DNA from: Nitrosopumilus sp.
Lineage (GTDB): Archaea > Thermoproteota > Nitrososphaeria > Nitrososphaerales > Nitrosopumilaceae
Assembly: GCA_963667665.2 (NCBI GenBank)
Contig: OY763927.2
Location: 544,001 to 608,000 of the forward strand
Reading direction: 5' to 3'
DNA: 64,000 nt
Each line of letters starts with the position of its first letter. Position 1 is the stretch's first letter. Both the position numbers and the translations under genes were made by a program. Shown here piece by piece: positions 7,421 through 57,810 of this stretch. Under the pieces are notes generated by a model that ran no database searches, was not told the origin of the DNA, and saw only the letters and a list, made by a program, of their open reading frames with translations.

Positions 7421-9091
7421 ATGACATTTTTAGATAACTTTCCACTACAGTACACTCCACGAGATACTCAAAAAGACGTGATTACACAAATTGAATCTGC
7501 TATATCATCAGGGTACAAAAACATCCTGCTTTGTGTCCCAACTGGAGTTGGTAAATCCCACATTGGAGTGACTGTTGCAAAATCCTTGGGAACATCATTT
7601 GTTATCACAGCGCAAAAGATTCTACAAGACCAGTATACTGATGACTTTGCATTTATTTATTCCATGAAGGGCAAGTCTAATTTCCCATGTATCAACCTGT
7701 ATGATACATCACAGATTTCATATGATATGGCAAGAAATGATCCTCAACTATTATGTAATATGGGACAGTGCTCGTGGGAGGAAAACGTAGGTGGAAAAAA
7801 GAAGACCATATACTGTAAACACAAGCCAAAGTTAGAGTCATTTACCAAACACAACATGAGAACAGAGCAAGAAAAAATAGCAGAACCCGACGAGCAAAAA
7901 TGCTATTACTATAACCAGAAATTCCAGGCATTGCTCTCAACTCACGCGCTATTCAACTATGCATCATACTTTCAAACCAGACTGTACCCACAAGGAATTG
8001 AAGAACTATTGAATAGAGACTGTATCATTGCAGATGAGGCACACGAGATTGAAGATCAAATTATTGGATACATCGGCTATGACATCAGACCCAAAACACT
8101 AGAGGATGTCAGGATGAATTTACATGATTACATCACAAACACAACTGATGGAGTCTTGGAATTGCTAGATATTTTAGGTGATGAGTATACAAGAGAAATA
8201 AGAAGGCTGCAAAATGCAGAAGACAAACGATATCAGACCTACAAGAAAAGGCGTGATAAGATTGATGATATAAAATATGAAATCAAGGATAATCCCGATA
8301 ACTTTGTAATCCAGGAGAATAAAGATGTCTCAGGGGACATCACATCCATATCAATCAAGCCAATAAGTATAGGAAAATACACAAAGCAGTTCTTTGATAG
8401 ACCGACTCAGATTTTCATGAGTGCTACAATTAACAAGATGATGTTTTGCAGAACCATGTCAATTCCTGAAGAACAGTGTGCATACATTGAGGTGGAACAG
8501 TCTCCATTCCCTGTGGGTCATAGAACAATACAATTTCATAATATTAGAAAACTAAACTATCATTCCACTGAGGATGATTACAATACAGTGTATGAAAAGG
8601 CAAAAGAGATTCTCAAGTTTTACGATAAAGAAAAAGGTTTGATTCTCACCACTACAAAAAAACACTGCTCAGATATTGCAGAAAAGTTGGGATGCAGGAT
8701 AGTAATTGCACATGAAGGAGTGCAAGGAAAGAGAGAAAAGATTCTAGAATTGCACAAAAATACAAAAAAGCCTGACGTGTTAGTATCCCCATCATTTTGG
8801 TATGGTGTGGACCTCAAAGATGATTTGTCAAGATTTCAGATTATTCTCAAGGCACCATATCCATCAATGGCAGACAAGAGAACCAAAGTAAAATCAGAGC
8901 GTGACCCATTATGGTATCAAAATAAGGCATTGGAGAAATTGTTACAGGGTTTTGGTAGGTCTATTCGAAGCGAGAATGACTATGCAGAGACTCATGTACT
9001 AGATGAGTCGTGTTATACCTTACTATCCAAGATGAGGCGATTTGTTCCAAAGGCGTACTGGGATTCATTGGGATGGAATGATGACTGCTAG
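7421..9091 (+). CDS. DinG/Rad3/XPD-family SF2 helicase
   Basis: PTGVGKS, DEAH, SAT, GVDL, QGFGRSIRS.ND motifs; Cys cluster after KGKSNFPC. Confidence 0.88.
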   Translation: MTFLDNFPLQYTPRDTQKDVITQIESAISSGYKNILLCVPTGVGKSHIGVTVAKSLGTSFVITAQKILQDQYTDDFAFIYSMKGKSNFPCINLYDTSQISYDMARNDPQLLCNMGQCSWEENVGGKKKTIYCKHKPKLESFTKHNMRTEQEKIAEPDEQKCYYYNQKFQALLSTHALFNYASYFQTRLYPQGIEELLNRDCIIADEAHEIEDQIIGYIGYDIRPKTLEDVRMNLHDYITNTTDGVLELLDILGDEYTREIRRLQNAEDKRYQTYKKRRDKIDDIKYEIKDNPDNFVIQENKDVSGDITSISIKPISIGKYTKQFFDRPTQIFMSATINKMMFCRTMSIPEEQCAYIEVEQSPFPVGHRTIQFHNIRKLNYHSTEDDYNTVYEKAKEILKFYDKEKGLILTTTKKHCSDIAEKLGCRIVIAHEGVQGKREKILELHKNTKKPDVLVSPSFWYGVDLKDDLSRFQIILKAPYPSMADKRTKVKSERDPLWYQNKALEKLLQGFGRSIRSENDYAETHVLDESCYTLLSKMRRFVPKAYWDSLGWNDDC

Positions 9092-15065: not shown

Positions 15066-15136
15066 GGGCCTGTAGCATGAGGGTCATACACCTAAGTAAG
15101 AACTAGGAGATTTGGGTTCAACTCCCAACAGGTCCA
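15066..15136 (+). tRNA. degenerate tRNA-like element (nominal anticodon AAG, short variable loop)
   Basis: Acceptor GGGCCTG/CAGGTCC+A; T arm TTGGG-TTCAACT-CCCAA; anticodon arm CCTAA-GTAAGAA-CTAGG with one mismatch; D stem GCAT/ATAC with one mismatch. Confidence 0.65.
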
Positions 15137-15310
15137 CACTACACATAATGTACATTTAGGTAAAAATTATTCAAGGAAATTTCTGAAATACCTAGCAACA
15201 GATTCTGAAACTTTGACTAATATGTCATTAGATTTTGGTTTGTCTTTCTCCAAATATCTGAAATTTCTTGATTTTATTTCCCCTTTAATACAAATCATTC
15301 TTGTATAGTT

Positions 15311-19317: not shown

Positions 19318-19707
19318 ATGTTGTCCTCTTTTTTCTATACATGTATCACTGCCGTATCTTCTACATTTGCAGGAATATTTGTAAATGTGTTTTTCAATGA
19401 TTTTGGAATCATACCTGCCATAATATTTTATGCTTGTGCGTTCTTTACAGACTATCACTCTACAGTCAGGGTAAGAAATTTTACAAAACATGAGACAAAC
19501 CCGCTGTTTTGTATATTCTCAAAAAGACTCTCCTCTGGAATGTCATTTGGAATAATATTTGCAATAGGCATTGGAATAAACATCATATCATACGCTGTAC
19601 TGGCAGACCCAATAATATCATACGTTCTTGGCATGTGTCATCTGTGTGCAGCAGCAAACAACTATCACATATCTAAAAAAATCATACTGACGGATAATGT
19701 ATCATGA
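19318..19707 (+). CDS. membrane protein with E.NP motif (DUF5658-like)
   Basis: D..ST......E.NPL followed by TM helices. Confidence 0.45.
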   Translation: MLSSFFYTCITAVSSTFAGIFVNVFFNDFGIIPAIIFYACAFFTDYHSTVRVRNFTKHETNPLFCIFSKRLSSGMSFGIIFAIGIGINIISYAVLADPIISYVLGMCHLCAAANNYHISKKIILTDNVS

Positions 19708-20222
19708 TCCTAATGAATATCATAAACGTGAATGCAAAGGCTAAAATATCCGGGTTTGACACTGATGCAATTATTGATGGCATTACTAATGCAGAATACA
19801 GACCAAACGGATTTCCAGCTATTTGTATTGGCAGTGACTCAGGAATCACTATCTCGTTGTTTGATTCAGGCAAGATAAACTCAAAGCGTGCAAAGTCCAC
19901 TGATTCTGCCATACTGGCAATCAATAATTTTGTCAAAACATTAAAAAAACTTGGAATGAAAATATCCATTCTCTCTAAGCCTTCCATATATCTAATTGTA
20001 ACAAATGTATTCTATGAAAAAAGAATAAACATCAAATCCCTCAAGAGTTTACCGGAATTCAAAAAGGAGATAAAACGATTCAGCTCAATCCAACTTGTAT
20101 TTCCTAACAATGTCAATGTTCTGGCATACGAGAATTCATTGAGGGTTTCAGGGAATGACATATCACATATGATGCAGGTGGTAAACAGCCTGAAAAAACA
20201 CACAATTCCTGCGGTGAAATAA
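19704..20222 (+). CDS. tbp: divergent TATA-box binding protein (TBP)-like
   Basis: First repeat NIINVNA...EY.P..FPA.....LF.SGK....AKS...AI...L...G; second repeat degenerate; 172 aa. Confidence 0.72.
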   Translation: MILMNIINVNAKAKISGFDTDAIIDGITNAEYRPNGFPAICIGSDSGITISLFDSGKINSKRAKSTDSAILAINNFVKTLKKLGMKISILSKPSIYLIVTNVFYEKRINIKSLKSLPEFKKEIKRFSSIQLVFPNNVNVLAYENSLRVSGNDISHMMQVVNSLKKHTIPAVK

Positions 20223-21255: not shown

Positions 21256-23145
21256 ATGTCTTCATTTCACTCTAGAATTTCAAAAAATTCCCCTTTAATA
21301 CAAAAACTATTCTACATTACAGTGAAAACAAAGCAGATAAAGTCATTCAAACTGGACCCATTTAATCTTGAATTTGCATTAGTCTCTACAGATGTTGCAG
21401 GAATATCAGAAAAAGAGCTATCCATATTATCATTTCTCTCATTCTTTGACAAGTTTACAGAGCCATTCTCCATTGATGTAGTGCGAGACTATGAGGATTT
21501 GCTATTCTACAAAACCATAAGGAGTTGCAGATTTGATAATGTAATAATTAACACAAGCCAGGAAAACCCTGAAAACATCCTACCTGGCGTATCATCTGCA
21601 TCTACCAGAAAGTGGGAAATAACAGAGGAGCATCCTGATTATTGTATATTAAAAGATGGATTATACTGTAAAACATACACGTTATCCATGCTTCATGATG
21701 ACTTGCCACCTGGATGGATTTACGGGTTGTATCAATATTCTGATGCAATAAGAATATTTGTAGAGCCTATACCTGACGGAAAGACACAATCAACAATTGC
21801 AAACCACAAGTCAGCTGCTGCCACAATGTCATCAGCCACTGGCATGAACTCGACTGATAATATCTCAATAATAAAAGAGTTGGTCCTAAACAAGAAAAAC
21901 CAGAAACTGTTCTTTACTAGAATAAACATTGTACTACTTGCAGCGGATGTCTCATCATTGCGCTCTAGAGAAAAAGAGTTTCTACAAAATACAAAAAACA
22001 TTCCAGGTATTGAGACTGCAAAACATGTCCAGAAAAAATTACTCCACGGAACAGAAGGTCAGAGAATTTTAATGGTGAGCAGTGCGTTTCACTGTCTTAT
22101 TCCGTTTGTAACATCAGAATTGTACGAGGAAGGCGGCATACTGTTGGGGGAAAATACAATGACAGGAAATCCAATCAGATGGAACATCAATAACCGTATC
22201 AATAGAAACACTGTACTTGCATCTACTTCTGGATCTGGCAAGACAACACTTGCAATGATGATAATTCATGCCTTTGAAAAGATGCATCATAACGCGTTTA
22301 TCTTTGGAGTTGATCCTGAAAACGAGTATGCAGTACTGGGTCAGAACATGGGATTTACCTGTGTGGATTATTCCTTTGGAAAAAAGATGGGTCTTGATTT
22401 ATTCAAGATGGTCCCAGATACTTTTGCTGCAACTGAAACATTGTGCAATGCGCTAAACGTTCCAGAAGTGGACAGAATCATTCCAAATATGGCTGCAACC
22501 ACCCTTGCAAATCTTGACATCTCGCACAGAAGCTTTACAAAATTCTATGAGATAATGGAAAAAAACGAAACAGACAATCACGCCCTAAAATATTTTAAGA
22601 TGTTGACTATTCCTCCATATTCTGACTTTTTTGAAGGGGAACCACCAAAGTCTAACAAGATAATTCTATCGCTAAAAAACATCGGCAGTGCTGGTGGAAC
22701 AGTACACAGACTAATCACACAGATTGCACTGTCTTATGCAATGGGCAGGGCATTGCTAATGCCCAAAATAATTCCGAAACTATTCATGCTAGATGAGGTG
22801 TGGATGTTACTACAACACGACTCTCTTGGTAATTATATTCAGAACTTGTCAAGACGTGGAAGAAAATACAACATCAATCTCATGATGGCAACTCAGAACA
22901 TTGAGGATATGACAGATAATGTATCTGCTCGAAACGTCCTGGTGAACAGTGACACTGTTATGTTTCTCAGGCAAAGTGAGGCTACTGCAAAATCACTCAG
23001 AGAACACTTTGTACTCTCTGATAATGCCGTCTCCTATATGATGAGATTAAACAGGGGACAGGCACTGATAAAATACGGAAATAGCATGGTTCCTGTAAAT
23101 ATCTTACCTGATGATGAGCAGTTAAAACTGTTCAGACCGAGATGA
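21256..23145 (+). CDS. virB4: VirB4-like conjugation ATPase
   Basis: STSGSGKT Walker A, DPENEY, LDEVW Walker B, RRGRKYN, ATQ. Confidence 0.85.
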   Translation: MSSFHSRISKNSPLIQKLFYITVKTKQIKSFKLDPFNLEFALVSTDVAGISEKELSILSFLSFFDKFTEPFSIDVVRDYEDLLFYKTIRSCRFDNVIINTSQENPENILPGVSSASTRKWEITEEHPDYCILKDGLYCKTYTLSMLHDDLPPGWIYGLYQYSDAIRIFVEPIPDGKTQSTIANHKSAAATMSSATGMNSTDNISIIKELVLNKKNQKLFFTRINIVLLAADVSSLRSREKEFLQNTKNIPGIETAKHVQKKLLHGTEGQRILMVSSAFHCLIPFVTSELYEEGGILLGENTMTGNPIRWNINNRINRNTVLASTSGSGKTTLAMMIIHAFEKMHHNAFIFGVDPENEYAVLGQNMGFTCVDYSFGKKMGLDLFKMVPDTFAATETLCNALNVPEVDRIIPNMAATTLANLDISHRSFTKFYEIMEKNETDNHALKYFKMLTIPPYSDFFEGEPPKSNKIILSLKNIGSAGGTVHRLITQIALSYAMGRALLMPKIIPKLFMLDEVWMLLQHDSLGNYIQNLSRRGRKYNINLMMATQNIEDMTDNVSARNVLVNSDTVMFLRQSEATAKSLREHFVLSDNAVSYMMRLNRGQALIKYGNSMVPVNILPDDEQLKLFRPR

Positions 23146-23790: not shown

Positions 23791-23837
23791 GGTTCTGGTA
23801 AATTCTAATGATCTGATCACCAAAATCTACCAGAACC
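23791..23837. repeat. 47-bp imperfect palindrome (head-to-head TIR mini-element), copy 1
   Basis: GGTTCTGGTAAATTCTAATGATC-T-GATCACCAAAATCTACCAGAACC; reverse-complement copies at 46262 and 48668. Confidence 0.8.
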
Positions 23838-23900
23838 TATGTATGCAAACAAGATGAAATGATCACCATATTTTTATATATAAATTATTTATGATCGCAT

Positions 23901-24922: not shown

Positions 24923-25804
24923 CCCAACTTATCCTAAAACTCTCCAGTACATCATAATTGATGCCAAATACACAAACCCAAGATAATTATCACAGTTCTT
25001 CTCATATCTGATTCTTGTTCTATGAAATCCATTCTTCAACCATGCAAAGAATCTCTCAACAACAAACCTTGTCTTGTTGTAATTGTTCTGCATGTTATTT
25101 GGTACGATGAATTTGGAATTATTCCTGTATGGAATGCAGCATCTGATAGAATGATTTCTCAGATAATTCCTGATGTATTTTGCATCATAGCCCTTGTCTG
25201 CATACACTGATACGATCTCTTCTATCATAGAATCATCTACAAAATCTGAAATTGATTCCATGACATCGATAAATTTCGTACTATCATGTTGATTTGCAGG
25301 ACTGCATACAATTGATATTGGCAATCCATTACTATCTACGGCAACATGTATTTTTGTACCTAGAATCTTCTTGAAACCATCATATCCAGTTACGTTGCCC
25401 CTTTTTTATTGGAAATTGATGATGAATCAACTGATATCTTTTGCAGATTAATCTTGTTTTGTTTGTAAGCTGATTTCATTATTCCAGAAAGAATCTTTTT
25501 CCATACTCCTTTTTGCTGCCAGTCTTGTAATCGTAGATGTGTAGTTGATTTGGAACCATACTTTTCTGGTAATTCTTCCCATCTGCATCCAACAGTTAGA
25601 ACAAATAGAATTCCATTAATTGTTGTTCTATCATCACATCTTGGTCTGCCTGTTCTTGCAGGTTTTGGTAAATGTGGTATAATTGATTTCCACTGTTTGT
25701 CTGTTAGTTCTTTATGAATCATAGAAATGATTTGATAGATGTTATTGTTAGATCTATACTATCATCAAATGTTTACAAAATGATCTGTTTTAGGATGAGT
25801 TGGG
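24923..25804 (-). mobile_element. IS5-family insertion sequence with split transposase (25390-25722 and 24929 to ~25400)
   Basis: 18-bp TIRs CCCAACTTATCCTAAAAC (24923-24940) and GTTTTAGGATGAGTTGGG (25787-25804), 17/18 match; ELTD.QW, GRPR, DSS, ADKGYD, R..VER.F.WLK; A6G4 run at the frame change. Confidence 0.9.
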
Positions 25805-26573
25805 TATCATTTTTGATATCTGATATCAGTTTTGGAATCAAGGCACCACCTCCTGCACAAACTACTGGGATTCCGGGATAGTCAATTACGACTTTTTCCA
25901 GAGAATCTGAAATGTTTGCGGCAAGGATTTTTCTTGCCTCATCGAGTTGCGGGGTGTTCTTTGAGAACAGTTTTTTATCCACATAACCTGATTTAGAAGA
26001 CGTAATGGATCTTGTAATGTCGCCAACACCATGCAAAAGTGTTTGGCCATATGCTATTGTATCGTGAGTTACAGCCATTATCTCAGTTGTACCCTGTCCT
26101 ATATGACACACTATTCCATCTTCTAACCCTTCATGATCAAGGGTTGCCTTTGCCTGAAACATCACACCAAAGAACTTTGGTGCAAATCTATCTTGAACTA
26201 CATTCTTGATTTTTTGGACGTAATCTTTTGCATTGTATGGAATGCCTGCAACGATTACACATTCTGAATAGTTTTGTGGACCGCCAGGCAATGCATCTTT
26301 TTGCAATACTATGACCTTCTCTAGTGCATGTTTTACCAACTCCATATAATCAGTAATGGATGTTGGTGCTCCCCTATACACTGGAGTCTTTAACACCATT
26401 GATTTTACTGACTCTTGTTTTGCTGCTTGCTCCCCGACAAGAACAGTTTTTTTTGATTCCAAGTCCATGCTTTTGCCTCTTGCAATTATTGATGGGAATG
26501 TAAATGTGCCATGTATGGTGGCAACTTTTACCAAACCCGTTCCAATGTCAAGACCGATGCAATTTTGTTTCAT
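25805..26573 (-). pseudogene. ParM/MreB-like actin-fold ATPase truncated by the IS5
   Basis: GLDIGTG.VK, IGQGTTE, AGGGA motifs; the last ORF codons come from the IS end. Confidence 0.75.
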
Positions 26574-26608
26574 GCTAACACCAGAACATTTTGAATTTAA
26601 GGTGCCAT

Positions 26609-26861
26609 TTTACTATCGTGTAATTACACGATAGTAAATCCCAACTATCGTGTAATTTGACGATACCCAAAATCCCTCCAAAAAAGAGGTTAACAAAACG
26701 CCCTTAATACAAAAACACTACTAGTAATTAAACAAAACCCAAAAAACACCAAAAACACACTTTACAGCATAGATAAGGAAAAATCCCAAGGATTCATACC
26801 AAATTCCAAAAACGCAATTTTTTCACAAAAACCAACCAAACTATCGCGTAATTACACGATA
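26609..26861. promoter_or_regulatory. three palindromic TATCGTGTAATTACACGATA-type sites
   Basis: Perfect 30-bp palindrome 26609-26638; imperfect copies 26644-26665 and 26840-26861. Confidence 0.7.
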
Positions 26862-26893
26862 TCAAAACCAACAAAATTTCTACAAAAATAAAA

Positions 26894-26963
26894 TAGAGGG
26901 CTATGATGAGACAGGCGTTGATCTGACACCAATATGATGACAGGCTTCTGTCTGAGCCCTCTA
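26894..26963 (+). ncRNA. dual-guide C/D-box sRNA
   Basis: C ATGATGA 26903-09, D' CTGA 26923-26, C' ATGATGA 26934-40, D CTGA 26952-55; terminal stem TAGAGGGCT/AGCCCTCTA; T-run downstream. Confidence 0.85.
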
Positions 26964-27020
26964 CAAATTTTTTGTATCAATGCTGTTAAAAATGTTAGCA
27001 CAGTCAAAGGTTTTGTCAAA

Positions 27021-27080
27021 CTGAGATATTATCTCCAACCCTGCAAAGAAATCGACTCAGCGAGTAGGGATTAAGAGATT
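27021..27080 (+). ncRNA. pseudoknot motif copy A (minimal)
   Basis: CTGAG/CTCAG crossed with CCCTGC/GTAGGG, plus ATCTC/GAGAT. Confidence 0.55.
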
Positions 27081-27347
27081 AAAAGAATTTTCTCAAATAC
27101 AAATACATCAAAGAGAACAACCAGTCCGCACAGCAGTATCATTTGGTTTATTGTAAAAAGAATAAATCAACAGGAATAAATTCCCGACATTGAATGATGA
27201 GGAACTATTCACACCAGAAATTATTTTTTTAACCCTAGCGCAAGCTATACTCTGGTGACGACATCAACTATCTACGGACAGACCAGTTACAATCTGCATT
27301 AGTTCAGCATTTGAGAGAAGACCACCATTTAGGTGAGGTAAAATACT

Positions 27348-27584
27348 ATGATGCGAAAAACACAAAGCAAAAAAATTCAAAACACAGGTACAAGTGTAAT
27401 AAACGTACAAAATACATCCAGCCAGAAACTACTTTTGGCAAAGAACTACCTTGAGCAGAAACTGGAATCTCAAGGATATAGAGGTCATGTAAGATACGAC
27501 CAAACCAGTCAAGGCTCTAATCCAGTACAGAGTCAAAGAGGGAACAGTAGCAGTTCTCAAAGACGGCAAACTCTGCATATTTGA
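27348..27584 (+). CDS. hypothetical protein (may be the frameshifted 5' part of the next gene)
   Basis: AGGTGAGG SD-like sequence upstream. Confidence 0.4.
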   Translation: MMRKTQSKKIQNTGTSVINVQNTSSQKLLLAKNYLEQKLESQGYRGHVRYDQTSQGSNPVQSQRGNSSSSQRRQTLHI

Positions 27585-27585
27585 G

Positions 27586-28407
27586 ATGCCAATGAAGAAA
27601 TTCAAAGGAGCATATCCATTGGAAGTACAATCAGTGGACATGGATTCAATCCAGACACAAAAAGCCACTTGCTGCAAGAGATGCCATACATGGAGACAAC
27701 AAGCAGACATAACACGATGTTCCTGTGGGGGATATCTTGTTCCAAGAAAGAGATTCTCTGTAGATACAGTAGAGTCATGGGATGAGCAATTCCTAGAGAT
27801 AGAATTTGCAAAAAAAGACATCAGAGCAGCAATAAGAACTGACAGAATTCTATCACGCAGACCAAGAAAATACCAAACAACAGGTATCACCCACAAACTC
27901 GCTGGAATATCATCTACAGAAATAGTAGATTCCCACAAAGAGGAATTGTTACTAATTCCAAGCGGTGATGATGTAAAGACTGTTCAGGTCAAACCAATAC
28001 TATCATGCAGTCTGATTTTTGTTGCTGCAATCAGTAGAGAAGACAAACCAGTTACAGACACAGACAAACTAGAGATTCTCAAAAAATACAACCTAGAGCC
28101 TGTAAATGATGATGCAAAAGACAGACAGTTCAAGTCCGAGGCAAAACAATTCATCAACCACACAACACCAATCCTATCTGAACAACTGATGGATTCATGG
28201 AACCATTCTGCATCTAGAAGACAGTCCAAAGTGTATAGAAGAAAGGTAAACTCTCTTGAGAAGAAATGGGACGGTACAGAATTGAGGAGACTGGACTACA
28301 AATATGGTCATCTATCAACCAAAAAAGACCGCAAAGAAAAGAACCAGCATATAACACAATCCTTTGCAAGCTCGATTCCTATCCCAACAGCAAATCAGAA
28401 AGCATAG
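27586..28407 (+). CDS. hypothetical zinc-ribbon protein
   Basis: CKRC...CSCGG; basic C-terminus. Confidence 0.55.
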   Translation: MPMKKFKGAYPLEVQSVDMDSIQTQKATCCKRCHTWRQQADITRCSCGGYLVPRKRFSVDTVESWDEQFLEIEFAKKDIRAAIRTDRILSRRPRKYQTTGITHKLAGISSTEIVDSHKEELLLIPSGDDVKTVQVKPILSCSLIFVAAISREDKPVTDTDKLEILKKYNLEPVNDDAKDRQFKSEAKQFINHTTPILSEQLMDSWNHSASRRQSKVYRRKVNSLEKKWDGTELRRLDYKYGHLSTKKDRKEKNQHITQSFASSIPIPTANQKA

Positions 28408-28620
28408 ATGATGACTGCTGAAGAATCTGCATTGAAACAATTCCAGGACGAACCATTTTTTGAGGTTCTGGTACAATCAATATCAAGAAAGGCAACAGCA
28501 TATGCATATGCACAACTTGTACAGAAATCAAATCTGGGTTCTGGAAACACAGTTGACTGTATCATAAAAGAGCAGGTACAAAAAACAATCCACAAACTCG
28601 AAAAGATTGGACAGTCTTAA
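28408..28620 (+). CDS. hypothetical protein
   Basis: Abuts the upstream stop codon. Confidence 0.45.
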   Translation: MMTAEESALKQFQDEPFFEVLVQSISRKATAYAYAQLVQKSNLGSGNTVDCIIKEQVQKTIHKLEKIGQS

Positions 28621-28666
28621 AAGCAAGAGAATTCCAACAGGAATAATGTCTAAGACAAAAACTGAC

Positions 28667-28748
28667 TTTGACTGAGTCTATCGCTCCAACTCCGTTATTC
28701 TGGTATAATAATACCAGCTGACTCAGCAGAACGGATGTGTGAGTTGAT
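28667..28748 (+). ncRNA. pseudoknot motif copy B
   Basis: CTGAGTC/GACTCAG crossed with TCCGTT/AACGGA; inner hairpin CTGGTAT/ATACCAG. Confidence 0.7.
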
Positions 28749-28766
28749 CCTTAAAGGAGGAAAAAA

Positions 28767-29459
28767 ATGGCAAAACAATTTATCAAAAGAACACTCATGG
28801 CAATAGTATTTACCATGTTGATTGTCATTGTAGCATCCCTTACATATCAGTATGTGGTTCCGATGGTACTTTCGATGGATACATCAAATGTGTCAGACGG
28901 AATAAACATTGGAAAAGGAATGTTGTACAATGCAAAAGAGCAGGTTATGAATGTCATGGGACAAAATGAAAAGAACTCTCAGGGAACACAAACTGATACT
29001 GCAAGTCAAGATGTAGAATTGTGGTACCAGAACAAAACAGTTGAAAAATCTCAAGGTACACAGACTAGTACAGCAAGTCAAGATGCAATACCATATGGTA
29101 CAGCACTTGGAGGCAAAGTCACCAAAATCGTAGACGGTGATACTCTAGATATTGATGGTACAAGAATCAGACTTGCGCTAGTCAATACACCAGAAAGAGA
29201 AGAAACAGGATATGCAGAAGCTACAGAATTTACAAGATTACACTGTCCAGTTGGTAGTACAGCAATGTATGATATGGATGATGGACAGAGAGATGGTTCT
29301 TACGGCAGAGTCATCGCAAAGGTGTGGTGCTTTGGATATCCAGTGGAGACACCAGACACATCATTGAATGCAATGCTGGTTAATTCAGGACATGCAGAAA
29401 TATTTCACAGATTCTGTAATACCAGTGAGTTTAGCAGTGATGAATGGGCAAACTGTTAG
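28767..29459 (+). CDS. membrane-anchored thermonuclease (SNase) family protein
   Basis: VTKIVDGDTL, IRLALVNTPE, YGRVIA, LN..LV..GHA. Confidence 0.85.
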   Translation: MAKQFIKRTLMAIVFTMLIVIVASLTYQYVVPMVLSMDTSNVSDGINIGKGMLYNAKEQVMNVMGQNEKNSQGTQTDTASQDVELWYQNKTVEKSQGTQTSTASQDAIPYGTALGGKVTKIVDGDTLDIDGTRIRLALVNTPEREETGYAEATEFTRLHCPVGSTAMYDMDDGQRDGSYGRVIAKVWCFGYPVETPDTSLNAMLVNSGHAEIFHRFCNTSEFSSDEWANC

Positions 29460-29482
29460 AGAATTTTCACACAAATATTTTT

Positions 29483-29557
29483 TTTGACCTGACAATCCTC
29501 TCAAATCCAATACCAGTGCAAATGCACCTGACAGGCAGATTGGATGTGAAGAAGGTT
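29483..29557 (+). ncRNA. pseudoknot motif copy C
   Basis: CCTG/CAGG crossed with ATCCAAT/ATTGGAT; inner hairpin GTGCA/TGCAC. Confidence 0.65.
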
Positions 29558-29589
29558 ATGATGCTTGCAGCATTACAAAAAAAAAAATC

Positions 29590-30006
29590 ATGACTGAACA
29601 AAACAATTCAGAGAAAATAAGAACCAGTCTAATGCGACGACAAAACGTGATATTTGTGGCAATGATAATAGTTGGGTTATTCCTGACCATCACGAGCCAG
29701 CTAATAGACAAACGACTGCTAAGTGAAGGCATAGCCTTTATTATAGTTGGATTCGTAGGTATGTTAATGTCTTGGACTACAATGGATATTGGCGCAAGTA
29801 TCAAGGAGGTAATCTATGATGTCGGCAGACAAAACCTGACAGTATTAGAATCCATTGCAAAATCTCAAAACGAGATGGTAAAATCTCTAAACGAGATGGT
29901 AAAATCTCTAAACGAGATGGTAAAATCTCTAAACGAGATGGTAAAATCTCTAAACGAGATGGTAAAATCTCTAAACGAGATAAAAGAAATCTTACAAGAC
30001 AAATAG
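29590..30006 (+). CDS. two-TM protein with heptad-repeat coiled-coil tail
   Basis: Two TM helices then (MVKSLNE)n. Confidence 0.6.
   Translation: MTEQNNSEKIRTSLMRRQNVIFVAMIIVGLFLTITSQLIDKRLLSEGIAFIIVGFVGMLMSWTTMDIGASIKEVIYDVGRQNLTVLESIAKSQNEMVKSLNEMVKSLNEMVKSLNEMVKSLNEMVKSLNEIKEILQDK
29860..29980 (+). repeat. 21-bp tandem repeat, about 5.7 units
   Basis: AAATCTCTAAACGAGATGGTA units. Confidence 0.9.
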
Positions 30007-43406: not shown

Positions 43407-44501
43407 GTGGAATTTTTCAAGACGTTCAAGAACGAATCAGGCATCTATGCATATGTAGAACTGATTGACAGCTCCATCTATCCGCCCCATCACATCAAGA
43501 TTGATTTTGACGAGCTGACTGAAGAACTGAAGGAGATTGTAAAAAATGAGAGCGAGATCAGGTTACACTTTGCCATCTACCGCAGCATTGGCGAGATATT
43601 TCAGGCAAGATATGGAGGTGCGGAACTGCAGGTTTTTCATGACAATAATTTTTTCAAGTTTGAAATTTTGAACTTTGAAAACTACAGCTCGAAAATTTTT
43701 GAGAGCCCACAACTGATCTACTGGAATAATGCGGATGATGGGTGGTTCAATGACGAAGACAAGATTGACAACGCTGCAATCCAGCTCCAAAAAGACAATC
43801 GCTTTTGTACACTGAGGAAATCAAACGAGATTCTGATGTATGATGGAAAAATCTATGACGATGTTGCAGCGGAGACGGTAATCAAGGAGGAGACGGAGAA
43901 GATAATTCCAAACTGTGGAATCAGAAACAGAATCGAGGTGATAGAAAAAATAAAGGCGCAGACATACACGGACCTGGAACTGTTTGACAGCGACCCCAAC
44001 ATAATCACGATTAACAGCGGAATCCTGGACCTGGAGAAGGTCGAAATCAACGAGCACACCCCACAGAACCAGAGCCGGGTACTGATTCCACGGAATTTCA
44101 AGACCCCCGAATTCAGGATTAATGACAAAACTATTTTTGAAGACATTGAAAAAAACCTGAGGGCTACCGAATTCTGGCAGTTTCTCATAAGATCATTCAC
44201 AATCAATGGGGAACTTCAACAGAAAAGCCTGGAGACAGTTCTGGAAATTTTGGCCGCACCACTGGTGAAGCACCAGATTGACGACAAGGCCTTCATGAAT
44301 CTGGGCAGCGGTGACAATGACAAGTCCGTCTTTCTGGGATATATCGGGGAGATGTATGGAACCAGGAACGGGTCAAACATTGCGCTGCAAGACATCGCGG
44401 ATGACAAGTTCTACCGCGCAAACCTGGACGGAAAAAGCTTCAACATATTTCCTGATCTGGAGAAGAACGAGTTGAGACATGGCTCTGGTAGGTTCTGGTA
44501 A
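43407..44501 (+). pseudogene. truncated D5/P4-type primase-associated SF3 helicase
   Basis: D5_N-like I...SGILDL...HTP; degenerate Walker A GSGDNDKS; L.GK..NI..D; cut by a repeat at 44481. Confidence 0.75.
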
Positions 44502-44660
44502 AAAACGGTGATCAAGATCACCAAAATTTAACAGCAGGGTTATGATAGATAATTTCGAGAAAATTACCAAGTACTAATTATCCCAGGATTTCAAAGAGCG
44601 ATTCGGAGAGGATCTATGTCTGATGATTTATGGTGCAGATCACCAGAATTTACCAGAACC
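44491..44660. mobile_element. 170-bp MITE-like element with 23-bp imperfect TIRs, copy 1
   Basis: GGTTCTGGTAAAAAACGGTGATC ... GATCACCAGAATTTACCAGAACC. Confidence 0.7.
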
Positions 44661-44853
44661 ACCAGAACCAACCAAAGCGCGTGGCATGGTGGAAAGGATC
44701 CGTGGTATGGATGCTTGAAGCGTTTGGAGGTGTCTGTTAAGTTGTCGTCGTGCCTAGAATTGCGTTAACTTCCGTCGCGCGGGTGTTCTAGGGTATAAGA
44801 CGAGTGGGGTTGGAAAGGGGGGATACTCCGGTGGCAAAGTGAGCACGACTGGA

Positions 44854-45932: not shown

Positions 45933-46095
45933 ACCACTTTCATTTTCTTTGATAAAAATTTCTTTGCCATCTGTTATAAATGTGATAATAGGTTCTGGTA
46001 AATTCTAGTGATCTACATCATTAATCATTAAATATGGATCTTCTTCAAATTCGATTTCATTGAATCAGATCCAGATAATGAGGATGACAAAAAAA

Positions 46096-46308
46096 GGTTC
46101 TGGTAAATTCTGGTGATCTGCACCATAAATCATCAGACATAGATCCTCTCCGAATCGCTCTTTGAAATCCTGGGATAATTAGTACTTGGTAATTTTCTCG
46201 AAATTATCTATCATAACCCTGCTGTTAAATTTTGGTGATCTTGATCACCGTTTTTTACCAGGGTTCTGGAAGATTTTGGTGATCAGATCATTAGAATTTA
46301 CCAGAGCC
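46096..46308. mobile_element. inverted MITE copy 2 (46096-46261) plus 47-bp mini-element (46262-46308); degenerate copy starts at 45991
   Basis: 46096-46261 is the reverse complement of 44495-44660. Confidence 0.8.
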
Positions 46309-46466
46309 TAATGATGTAGATAGGTTAGCATGATCCAAATGTCATCATACCAATTTTAATTGGAACTCTTGATGATATGATTATAAAAATAAAAACACCT
46401 TTAGCTTCAACATAGTCAAAATGAATTGAATACTTTCTTAATAATAACAACTTTAAGATTGCTTTA

Positions 46467-48667: not shown

Positions 48668-48714
48668 GGTTCTGGAAGATTTTGGTGATCAGATCATTAG
48701 AATTTACCAGAACC
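48668..48714. repeat. 47-bp palindromic mini-element, copy 3
   Basis: Differs from 46262-46308 at one base; lies 4 bp before the transposase ATG. Confidence 0.85.
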
Positions 48715-48718
48715 TTCC

Positions 48719-57209: not shown

Positions 57210-57214
57210 TATGA

Positions 57215-57755
57215 TTAATCATTTTTTACTTCGATTTTATTTTTATTAAATTTGTTGTATCCATCTTTGTTGTATCCATCTTTGTTGTATCCATCTTTGT
57301 TGTATCCATCTTTGTTGTATCCATCTTTGTTGTAACCTATGTGATCATATCCCAATCTATCATATCCCTCTTTGTTATACCCAATACTATCATATCCATC
57401 CAAGTCATACCCATTACTATCATATCCATTTCCATCATACCCATTTCTATCATATCCATTTCTATCATACCCTTCTAGGTCATACCCATCTTTGTTGTAT
57501 CCATCTTTGTTATGCCCGTCTAGGTCATACCCATCTTTGTTGTAACCATTTTTGTTATACCCAATACTGTCATACCCGTCTTTGTTGTACCCATTTTTAT
57601 TATACCCATCTTTGTTGTAACCCTTTTTGTTATACCCGTCTTTATCAAAATTTATTTTTGTATCAATGTGAATTCCATCAAGATAAAAACCACGATTGTC
57701 ATACCCATCTTTGTTGTAACCCTTTTTGTTGTACCCATTTTTATTATACCCATTT
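57215..57755 (-). repeat. GY(N/D)xD pentapeptide-repeat coding region, 5' part missing
   Basis: 15-bp degenerate tandem units continue well upstream of the listed ORF. Confidence 0.7.
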
Positions 57756-57810
57756 GGTCAATTATTAATTACTAGAGTAATTTAACTGAAATAATAAATT
57801 CATACCAATT

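Follow-up and report, generated by a model that had tools for sequence, protein, structure and literature searches.

Analysis of a 64,000-nucleotide stretch of a Nitrosopumilus sp. genome (contig OY763927.2, positions 544,001 to 608,000; hereafter the window) points to a genuine box C/D guide RNA gene at window positions 26894-26963 on the forward strand. This small RNA (sRNA) belongs to a family with exchangeable guides, and we consider it likely that its gene is situated on an accessory island and that it directs a predicted methylation of host 16S ribosomal RNA (rRNA) at A908 and perhaps also at A884. This proposal draws on the anatomy of the gene, its family, the covariation of the terminal stem, the enrichment of guide complementarity, the accessory distribution, and the host machinery, from which transcription, assembly into a ribonucleoprotein (RNP), methylation, and mobility of the island are predicted. 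Genomes are designated here by G-numbers (G000 is the genome of the window, which spans C1:544001-608000 within it), loci by L-numbers, and public runs by X-numbers.

Anatomy of the sRNA gene

The elements of the gene, in window coordinates, are the following.

26894..26963, + strand: box C/D sRNA gene (whole match to covariance model R1; 70.4 bits, E = 8.6e-18)
26894..26901, + strand: 5' arm of the terminal stem, TAGAGGGC
26903..26909, + strand: box C, ATGATGA; the GATGA core shows little or no variation across the 32-copy alignment A1
26910..26922, + strand: guide 1 (D' guide), GACAGGCGTTGAT, 13 nucleotides (nt); predicted target 16S 904-912
26923..26926, + strand: box D', CTGA
26927..26934, + strand: D'/C' loop, 8 nt
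26935..26940, + strand: box C', TGATGA
26941..26951, + strand: guide 2 (D guide), CAGGCTTCTGT, 11 nt; candidate target 16S 883-890
26952..26955, + strand: box D, CTGA
26956..26963, + strand: 3' arm of the terminal stem, GCCCTCTA
26968..26973, + strand: T6 run, 5 nt past the stem; possible archaeal terminator

An initial annotation of this DNA had described a dual-guide C/D sRNA at this location, with complete C, D', C', and D boxes, guides of 13 and 11 nt, and a 9-bp terminal stem. All four boxes are canonical in sequence, the guide lengths agree, and the dual-guide assignment is borne out by this anatomy, by a family of 76 members whose stem covaries, and by the C/D machinery of the host. The stem is present as well, but it consists of eight Watson-Crick (WC) base pairs, all of them intact and outside the boxes; the ninth is the U26902-A26955 pair of the minimum free energy fold, which would use the last A of box D. 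With its ends paired, the RNA fold has z = -2.87 and is matched in stability by 1 of 200 shuffled sequences. The sequence GACAGGC does occur in both halves of the gene (26910-26916 and 26939-26945), as the annotation had noted. The half-duplication origin that it offered is not needed: GA-CAG after box C' and GAC after box C recur across the family. Archaeal transcription ends at oligo-T tracts, and the T6 run downstream of the stem may be one of these.

A strict four-box pattern (RTGATGA-N10-14-CTGA-N2-14-TGATGA-N10-14-CTGA) has a single match on both strands (3.8 Mb) of the whole 1.89-Mb, 34% G+C genome, and this match is the window gene.

A family with a constant scaffold and exchanged guides

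Comparison of the window element with 401 genomes of Nitrosopumilaceae by blastn reveals clear homologues in a handful of genomes, including runs of copies at intervals of ~130 nt in G274 and also in G080, a genome from another genus. Loci of this kind are arrays of head-to-tail cassettes that share the stem, the boxes, and a conserved A/T-rich spacer between units and that differ in their guides. The family scaffold combines an 8-bp stem containing GAGGGC/GCCCTC with canonical C/D and C'/D' boxes, and all four boxes are intact in most copies. In alignment A1, 93.4% of the stem cells are paired, the two outer pairs (1 and 2) covary between AU, UA, and GC, and the covariation score of the stem is reached by none of 500 shuffled alignments. 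Covariance model R1 yields 76 matches in 27 sources (the window and 26 loci), and the score of the window copy is in the upper part of the family range. R1 is a first covariance model for locating C/D sRNAs in Nitrosopumilaceae.

The arrays contain 7 and 6 units in G274, 11 in G080, 13 in G422, 4 in G368, and 4 in G016; members also occur singly. Between array units the stem and boxes are 92-96% identical and the G274 spacers 92-98% identical, in comparison with 48-63% for the guides, which therefore appear to be exchanged modules on a homogenized scaffold. A second C/D backbone with a GACAG.../...GTC stem alternates with the GAGGGC-type units in G368 (L031 8835-9540). It bears the same guides, to helix 31 of 16S rRNA and to the peptidyl transferase center (PTC), as its GAGGGC-type neighbors, and guide modules therefore seem to move between scaffolds.

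When R1 is run against the genus, 44 of 101 genomes contain a match at E <= 0.001, but just 8 contain one of at least 40 bits. The weaker matches look like chromosomal C/D sRNAs with unrelated stems, and the genome of the window has a few of them (C1:1038463, 1259386, 1405598). One singleton that resembles the family lies in the same genome at C1:409034-409107 on the reverse strand (L054 6035-6108) and carries a guide to tRNA-Asp. Two of 18 scaffold matches in genome contigs (from a Dehalococcoidia with 59% GC and a 'Crenarchaeota' with 52% GC) are without D'/C' structure, resemble chance matches, and were set aside.

Complementarity of the family guides to rRNA and tRNA

The guides of the family were compared with the rRNA of the window's own genome by counting those that can form at least 10 WC pairs across the predicted +5 methylation site. 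Nine of 50 unique guides do so, versus a mean of 0.58 for shuffled guides (maximum 3 in 40 rounds), and a reversed-rRNA control gives 0 of 50. A larger set of 107 unique guides from 70 parsed copies, compared with both rRNA and transfer RNA (tRNA), contains 16 such guides versus a shuffled mean of 1.25 (maximum 4 in 20 rounds). Judged by this complementarity, which is far above chance, the family guides are real rRNA and tRNA guides.

One theme is the helix-31 region of 16S rRNA, to which guides like window guide 1 are directed in G274, G353, G419, G422, G080, G016, and G368. The window type (...GGCGTTGAT) places A908 at +5 and pairs over 9 bp in most copies (G274, G353, G419); one G274 copy with GACCTGGCGTTGAT reaches 11 bp on this segment. 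The guide ATCTGGCGTTGT pairs over 10 bp with C909 at +5, occurring three times in G080 and also on the second backbone of G368, and further guides place U905, G910, or C911 at +5. The helix-31 guides tile positions 903-918 of the window genome's 16S rRNA in at least five registers.

Other themes involve functional centers of the ribosome and the anticodon region of tRNAs. In nine copies, GTTCCATTCATT forms 11 bp with 23S rRNA and has A2074 at +5 (Escherichia coli A1969, in helix 71). Four different guides (CAGCCTGTTATT, CAGCCTGTTATA, CAGCCTGTTAGT, and GAGCCTGTTAAT) pair over 9-11 bp with GAUAACAGGCUC of 23S rRNA, and all of them, whether in D' or D position, keep a constant register with A2552 (E. 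coli A2451) at +5. Each of five hosts has a single exact copy of the PTC target GGGATAACAGGCTC. The loci that carry the A2451 guides are listed here.

G080 L030 10508-10577 and 10814-10883: A2451-guide sRNAs
G422 L040 10028-10104 and 11134-11212: A2451-guide sRNAs
G368 L031 ~8870-8950: A2451-guide sRNA on the second backbone

Guides in G368, G016, and G384 have C1348 of 16S rRNA (E. coli C1407) at +5. The guide core AGCCGTGAC can pair over 9-10 bp with tRNA-Asp(GUC), in its anticodon loop and the 3' strand of the stem, which puts U35 or C36 at +5. Copies of this core are found in the reverse-strand singleton of the window's own genome, in L023, L024, and L030, and in the singletons L065 and L071; the singletons differ in having long additional stems at their flanks (gaatcaaaa/ttttgattc). 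A further guide, GCCGCGTGCAAT, pairs with the corresponding region of tRNA-Ala(UGC), with C36 at +5. Within its own genome the window gene is not accompanied by a second sRNA with a helix-31, helix-71, PTC, or C1407 guide. Helices 68-71 of 23S rRNA and the surroundings of the PTC are known hotspots of archaeal C/D guides (PMC7994747), and A2451 itself is not named in that paper (0 occurrences). PMC2919715 describes the 2'-OH of A2451 as the rRNA group that is most pivotal when peptide bonds are formed.

Predicted targets of the two window guides

The host has a single 16S gene at C1:376824-378294, whose positions 880-916 read GGTGAAGCCTGCGGTTCAATTGGAGTCAACGCCAGAA. This agrees exactly with the thaumarchaeal sequence that the initial annotation had given. 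Guide 1 can pair with 16S 904-912 through a G:U pair at D'+1 followed by eight WC pairs, and A908 is then at +5. Guide 2 can form eight WC pairs with 16S 883-890 from D+4 to D+11, which puts A884 at +5. The 9 and 8 bp that had been predicted for the two guides hold if the G:U pair is counted. The duplexes are 13 nt apart (the initial annotation gave about 15 nt), and the target adenines are separated by 24 nt. A MAFFT alignment with rrsH of E. coli K-12 equates A908 with A969 in the helix-31 loop and A884 with position 945. Both 16S target segments are identical in all six host 16S genes compared.

Aligning the guides to the window's own genome, a check proposed along with these predictions, finds both 16S sites present, with the target of guide 1 backed by the relatives and that of guide 2 less firmly so. 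The assignment of guide 1 to helix 31 is supported by conservation, because the guide is a typical member of the helix-31 theme, and not by the 9-bp duplex as such. The assignment of guide 2 to A884 is weaker as a prediction. It is supported by a G177 sRNA with a different stem (L052 6123-6213), whose D guide, GAAGGCTTCAAT, can form 8 bp with 16S 882-889 and also has A884 at +5. A genome-wide search for other targets of the window guides gave 10- to 11-bp matches in the number expected by chance, and these candidates, among them a repeated coding sequence (C1:521570-538884) and a repeat with a 36-nt period (C1:1290087-1290663), were rejected. The idea that guide 1 is a decayed form of the 11-bp guide was also dropped, since 9 bp is the usual extent for guides of the window type.

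The three proteins of an archaeal C/D RNP are encoded in the same genome, with the fibrillarin and Nop5 genes side by side (C1:55544-57161).

C1:55544-56197: fibrillarin (300 bits)
C1:56478-57161: Nop5 (229 bits)
C1:1329041-1329313: L7Ae (92 bits)

Genomic context and distribution

The principal features around the sRNA gene, again in window coordinates, are these.

15066-15137: tRNA-Leu
19704-20222, + strand: paralogue of the TATA-binding protein (Pfam TBP, E = 1.7e-9)
21256-23145: TraG P-loop/AAA_10/HerA-type ATPase
25773..26573, - strand: actin-fold (ParM-like) ATPase, 266 amino acids (aa), divergent from the sRNA
26612-26641, 26644-26673, and 26840-26869: three copies of a 24-nt palindrome (ACTATCGTGTAATTACACGATAGT type) between the actin-like gene and the sRNA
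27348..30006, + strand: downstream co-oriented genes for proteins of 78 aa, 273 aa, 70 aa, 230 aa (SNase-like), and 138 aa (coiled coil)

The initial annotation had placed the sRNA between a partition ATPase and a set of co-oriented genes. Its position is as described, but the ATPase has an actin fold and is not a Walker-type ParA. The protein matches Pfam Actin (E = 6e-6, below the cut-off), ALP_N, and a PHROG 'partition protein' family (E = 4e-5), and its best matches in the PDB are actins of the eukaryotic type (E = 5.7e-8) and not ParM. The sRNA gene is 321 nt from the start of the actin-like gene. Across the family, sRNA clusters occur 286-1331 nt from an actin-like gene at nine loci in eight genomes, which account for 46 of the 70 parsed copies, and rRNA-directed members mostly lie a few hundred bases from the start of that gene. 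G353, G177, and G274 have homologous sequence throughout the interval from the actin-like gene to the sRNA, and the palindrome arms covary between the elements of four genomes. The palindromes may thus be operator- or centromere-like. Homologues of the TBP paralogue adjoin the actin-like gene in G190 and G353.

The downstream genes are kept together with the sRNA and actin module and are tandemly multiplied in relatives. The module of 78-aa, 273-aa, 70-aa, and coiled-coil genes is repeated five times in tandem in G177 and three times in G274 (L028 9915-18199; L023 1125-6446). The coiled-coil gene contains a 21-nt tandem repeat at window 29833-30000. The 78-, 273-, and 70-aa proteins match no family of Pfam or PHROG, and the 273-aa protein retrieves only unnamed clusters from Atlas, at a score of 0.81, which provide no lead. 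The window also holds an IS4/5 insertion sequence (IS) fragment, and an IS fragment interrupts the neighboring module. IS fragments are among the features upstream in the window, along with the TraG/HerA-type ATPase, the TBP paralogue, and tRNA-Leu.

A pattern that combines the boxes with the helix-31 guide is present in 6 of the 401 family genomes and has no matches in the controls, and a guide with this distribution is therefore accessory. The actin-like gene is found in 55 of the 401 genomes and in 9 of 27 genera, often in multiple copies (up to five per genome), and G274 has two near-identical arrays 175 kb apart. Relative to G353, whose 16S rRNA is 99% identical, the island proteins are 37-80% identical and a flanking gene is 90% identical. 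The TraG/HerA-type ATPase, the actin-like partition-type gene, the TBP paralogue, the SNase, and the IS fragments are of a plasmid or conjugation type, and several of these matches are weak. This gene content would fit an accessory island that resembles a plasmid or an integrative and conjugative element (ICE). On these grounds, together with the palindromes and the patchiness, the mobile-element location given by the initial annotation is plausible, although neither an integrase nor an attachment (att) site nor a boundary was found. As to whether homologues are confined to mobile elements, many are in actin-linked islands, but singletons also occur outside them.

Several other observations concern this genome and window. 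The genome has 16 matches of the Phage_integrase type in 1.89 Mb, and the sponge-metagenome runs X7 and X9 contain 0.73-0.74 of the region's sampled words, which suggests a host that is rich in mobile genetic elements and probably sponge associated. Palindromic repeats of 48 nt (GGTTCTGG...GATC...CCAGAACC) are present at 23791-23838, 44614-44661, 46262-46309, and 48668-48715, and also at 45987-46155. They cluster around a stretch of higher G+C content at 40-46 kb (40-44% G+C) with a D5_N/primase-like gene (43407-44501), and this stretch and its palindromes may represent a second mobile element or repeats similar to miniature inverted-repeat transposable elements (MITEs). A 15-nt tandem repeat forms an array of more than 25 units at 57213-57768.

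Proposed mechanism and alternative explanations

The sRNA would be transcribed from its own A/T-rich upstream region, as the conserved upstream block suggests, and would fold so that the stem closes its C/D and C'/D' kink-turn motifs. In this form it could bind the L7Ae, Nop5, and fibrillarin of the host. Pairing of the D' guide with the helix-31 loop of pre-16S rRNA would then direct 2'-O-methylation of A908 (E. coli A969), and the D guide would, less certainly, direct 2'-O-methylation of A884 (E. coli 945), 24 nt upstream.

Several observations weigh against this proposal. The window duplexes are short (eight WC pairs and one G:U pair in one, eight WC pairs in the other) and each is nonsignificant by itself, as 452 of 2000 shuffled guides (22.6%) have eight WC pairs somewhere in the rRNAs; for guide 2, D+2 and D+3 are also unpaired. 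The optimal C/D guide spacer is 12 nt, from which the 13- and 11-nt spacers of the window gene deviate, and most guides in the family have 10-14 nt. Some array copies have damaged C boxes (for example, ATTATGA and ATTATAA). Contigs of four RNA libraries include one of 313 nt (X16, record 9) that covers 26731-27021 with the sRNA gene, but a contig cannot give ends, strand, or level and may stem from DNA carry-over. This contig represents a strain variant with two G-to-A changes, one at 26905 in box C and one at 26944 in guide 2 (position +8); the latter breaks the pairing of guide 2 with 16S rRNA in that strain. An A-to-C change in guide 1 of the variant gives a guide of the G274 type. The variant suggests that the gene is dispensable in some populations. 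A contig from X15 diverges from the reference after 26898, and the same loose-end sequence precedes 27703 in X18, a hint that the sRNA locus also exists in a rearranged or deleted form. Coverage by RNA-library contigs has a gap at 27022-27406, to which we attach no meaning.

The sRNA could instead be an ordinary housekeeping C/D sRNA of the chromosome that happens to be located in a variable region, with an immobile island of which it is not cargo. The window (C1:544001-608000) has no match to a tyrosine integrase (PF00589) and no direct repeat derived from tRNA-Leu elsewhere in it, and neither DNA nor protein synteny defines a boundary of the island. DNA synteny with 20 relatives is uninformative, with purD 69-75% identical in two genomes and the tRNA flank without a useful match, and neither G259 nor G291 shows conserved synteny around purD at the protein level. 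Because integrase, att repeat, and boundary are all missing from these searches, we infer mobility only from the kinds of genes present and from their patchy occurrence. Viral contigs contain no match to the strict scaffold pattern, and family singletons exist outside islands, both in the window's own genome (C1:409034-409107) and as the versions with long flanking stems. However, the helix-31 guide is found in just 6 of 401 family genomes, and the window's own genome has no other sRNA with a guide to helix 31, helix 71, the PTC, or C1407. The linkage of the module to a patchy, multicopy actin-like gene, the company of the TraG/HerA-type ATPase, TBP paralogue, nuclease, and IS fragments, the paired arrays of G274, and the much greater divergence of island proteins than of the flanking gene between relatives with 99% identical 16S rRNA also speak against it, and we regard this explanation as unlikely. 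An origin of the short box motifs by chance, within intergenic sequence rich in A/T, would agree with the result of an Rfam search at gathering thresholds, which finds only tRNA in the window; the best sRNA score is 23.3 bits versus a threshold of 46. The window sRNA is outside every curated Rfam family. Of the 25 subthreshold matches in 26600-27300, 17 are to C/D-box families and are placed on 26895-26962 of the forward strand. Chance is nevertheless exceedingly improbable in view of the single strict-pattern match in 3.8 Mb and the 76 homologous copies with stem covariation.

Two further explanations accept the family but assign a different role to the RNA. It might act by pairing with the helix-31 region of pre-16S rRNA, either as an assembly chaperone or as a block, with methylation secondary or absent. 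The five or more registers over 16S 903-918 (with U905, A908, C909, G910, or C911 at +5) conserve the bound segment and not the methylated nucleotide, so this spread over adjacent nucleotides fits binding as well as it fits methylation and counts against our proposal. Most helix-31 guides of the window type pair over just 9 bp, and orphan or weak guides may still assist rRNA folding according to PMC6009581. Yet most copies keep all four boxes perfect, which an active methylation RNP needs, and other themes do hold their register (A2451 is at +5 for four guides in three genomes and A1969 in nine copies), which makes a role in pairing improbable as the main function. Alternatively, the window copy could be a decaying, nonfunctional duplicate of an array cassette. 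Its guide 1 does not have the extra pairs of GACCTGGCGTTGAT (11 bp), its guide 2 forms just 8 bp, a population variant has a mutated C box, some array copies have broken C boxes, and an IS fragment interrupts the adjacent module. The four boxes and eight stem pairs of the window copy are intact, however, its 70.4 bits are in the upper family range, and 9 bp is the usual extent of this guide in G274, G353, and G419, so that decay appears quite improbable.

The preferred interpretation, a genuine guide RNA gene with exchangeable guides on an accessory island, can be extended into a broader idea that we consider speculative and rather doubtful: the arrays might be a programmable, horizontally spread means to re-aim host fibrillarin at functionally critical riboses of ribosomes and tRNAs. 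Exchange of a 12-nt cassette would create a new methylation site, and the window sRNA, aimed at the helix-31 loop of the P site, would be a member with a single cassette. The predicted +5 sites would then comprise the 16S helix-31 loop (E. coli 966-972), C1407 in the decoding center, A1969 and A2451 of 23S rRNA, and positions 35/36 of tRNA-Asp and tRNA-Ala. A 2'-O-methyl group blocks cleavage chemistry that needs the 2'-OH, and for this reason methylation could protect ribosomes or tRNAs from ribonuclease toxins or ribosome-binding natural products. Methylation might alternatively throttle host translation to the benefit of the element. The A2451 guides offer the sharpest test of protection or interference, and the C1407, helix-31, and anticodon guides also make it testable.

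Comparison with known systems

C/D guide RNAs are usually regarded as housekeeping genes of thermophilic archaea and eukaryotes, whereas those described here are accessory and cassette-like and occur in a mesophilic ammonia oxidizer. They are tied to a partition-type actin gene, are present in ~1-2% of related genomes, and form arrays of up to 13 units. If the RNAs are active, ribose methylation of rRNA and tRNA would be horizontally variable, and a 12-nt exchange could reprogram it. A literature search, in which the slash of 'C/D' was not searchable, found no account of C/D sRNAs in Thaumarchaeota or Nitrosopumilus. It likewise found no account of this Nitrosopumilaceae family or of tandem archaeal C/D sRNA arrays, and none of an archaeal C/D RNA borne by a virus, plasmid, or mobile element. 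The terms actin, ParM, sRNA, snoRNA, TATA-binding, and 'methylation guide' do not occur in the main text of Krupovic et al. 2019 (PMC6563490).

The closest parallels are the archaeal C/D sRNAs of Pyrococcus, Sulfolobus, and Pyrobaculum (sR), which function in L7Ae-Nop5-fibrillarin RNPs. They share the RUGAUGA and CUGA boxes, the internal D'/C' pair, two guides of ~12 nt, and the terminal stem, and the predicted targets of the relatives coincide with their hotspots in 23S helices 68-71 and the PTC surroundings (PMC7994747). In contrast, the present family comes from a mesophilic Nitrosopumilus, has no Rfam match at threshold, combines a constant scaffold with cassette-like guides, forms tandem arrays on an accessory island next to an actin-like gene, and has some unusual predicted +5 sites (A2451 and tRNA 35/36). 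A MITE-like C/D sRNA of Pyrobaculum calidifontis (Lui et al. 2018, PMC6009581) is also a scaffold that has multiplied in its genome with modular guide exchange. It exists in ~15 dispersed copies and was proposed to be transposon-like, unlike the head-to-tail arrays with a conserved spacer and a link to a partition-type gene that are found here; the word 'tandem' has 0 occurrences in that paper.

Type II (ParMRC) partition loci resemble the neighboring region in that iterated palindromes, which covary between elements, lie ahead of a gene for an actin-fold ATPase. In the present case, the best matches of the ATPase are eukaryote-type actins, no ParR was identified, and the sRNA genes are on the far side of the repeats. 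Clustered C/D genes are also known from plants and yeast, which have polycistronic snoRNA gene clusters, and the herpesvirus Epstein-Barr virus encodes v-snoRNA1, a mobile or viral C/D RNA that uses host fibrillarin. Those systems are eukaryotic, whereas the units described here have an archaeal host, an A/T-rich upstream block each, and predicted targets in functional centers of host rRNA and tRNA. A functional analogy may exist with resistance 2'-O-methyltransferases such as Tsr, which confers thiostrepton resistance by methylating rRNA at A1067. We know of no resistance phenotype for the sRNA family. Both kinds of accessory gene would add a ribose methyl group at a functional rRNA site, but in the sRNA family the specificity would come from a 12-nt guide RNA and a host enzyme.

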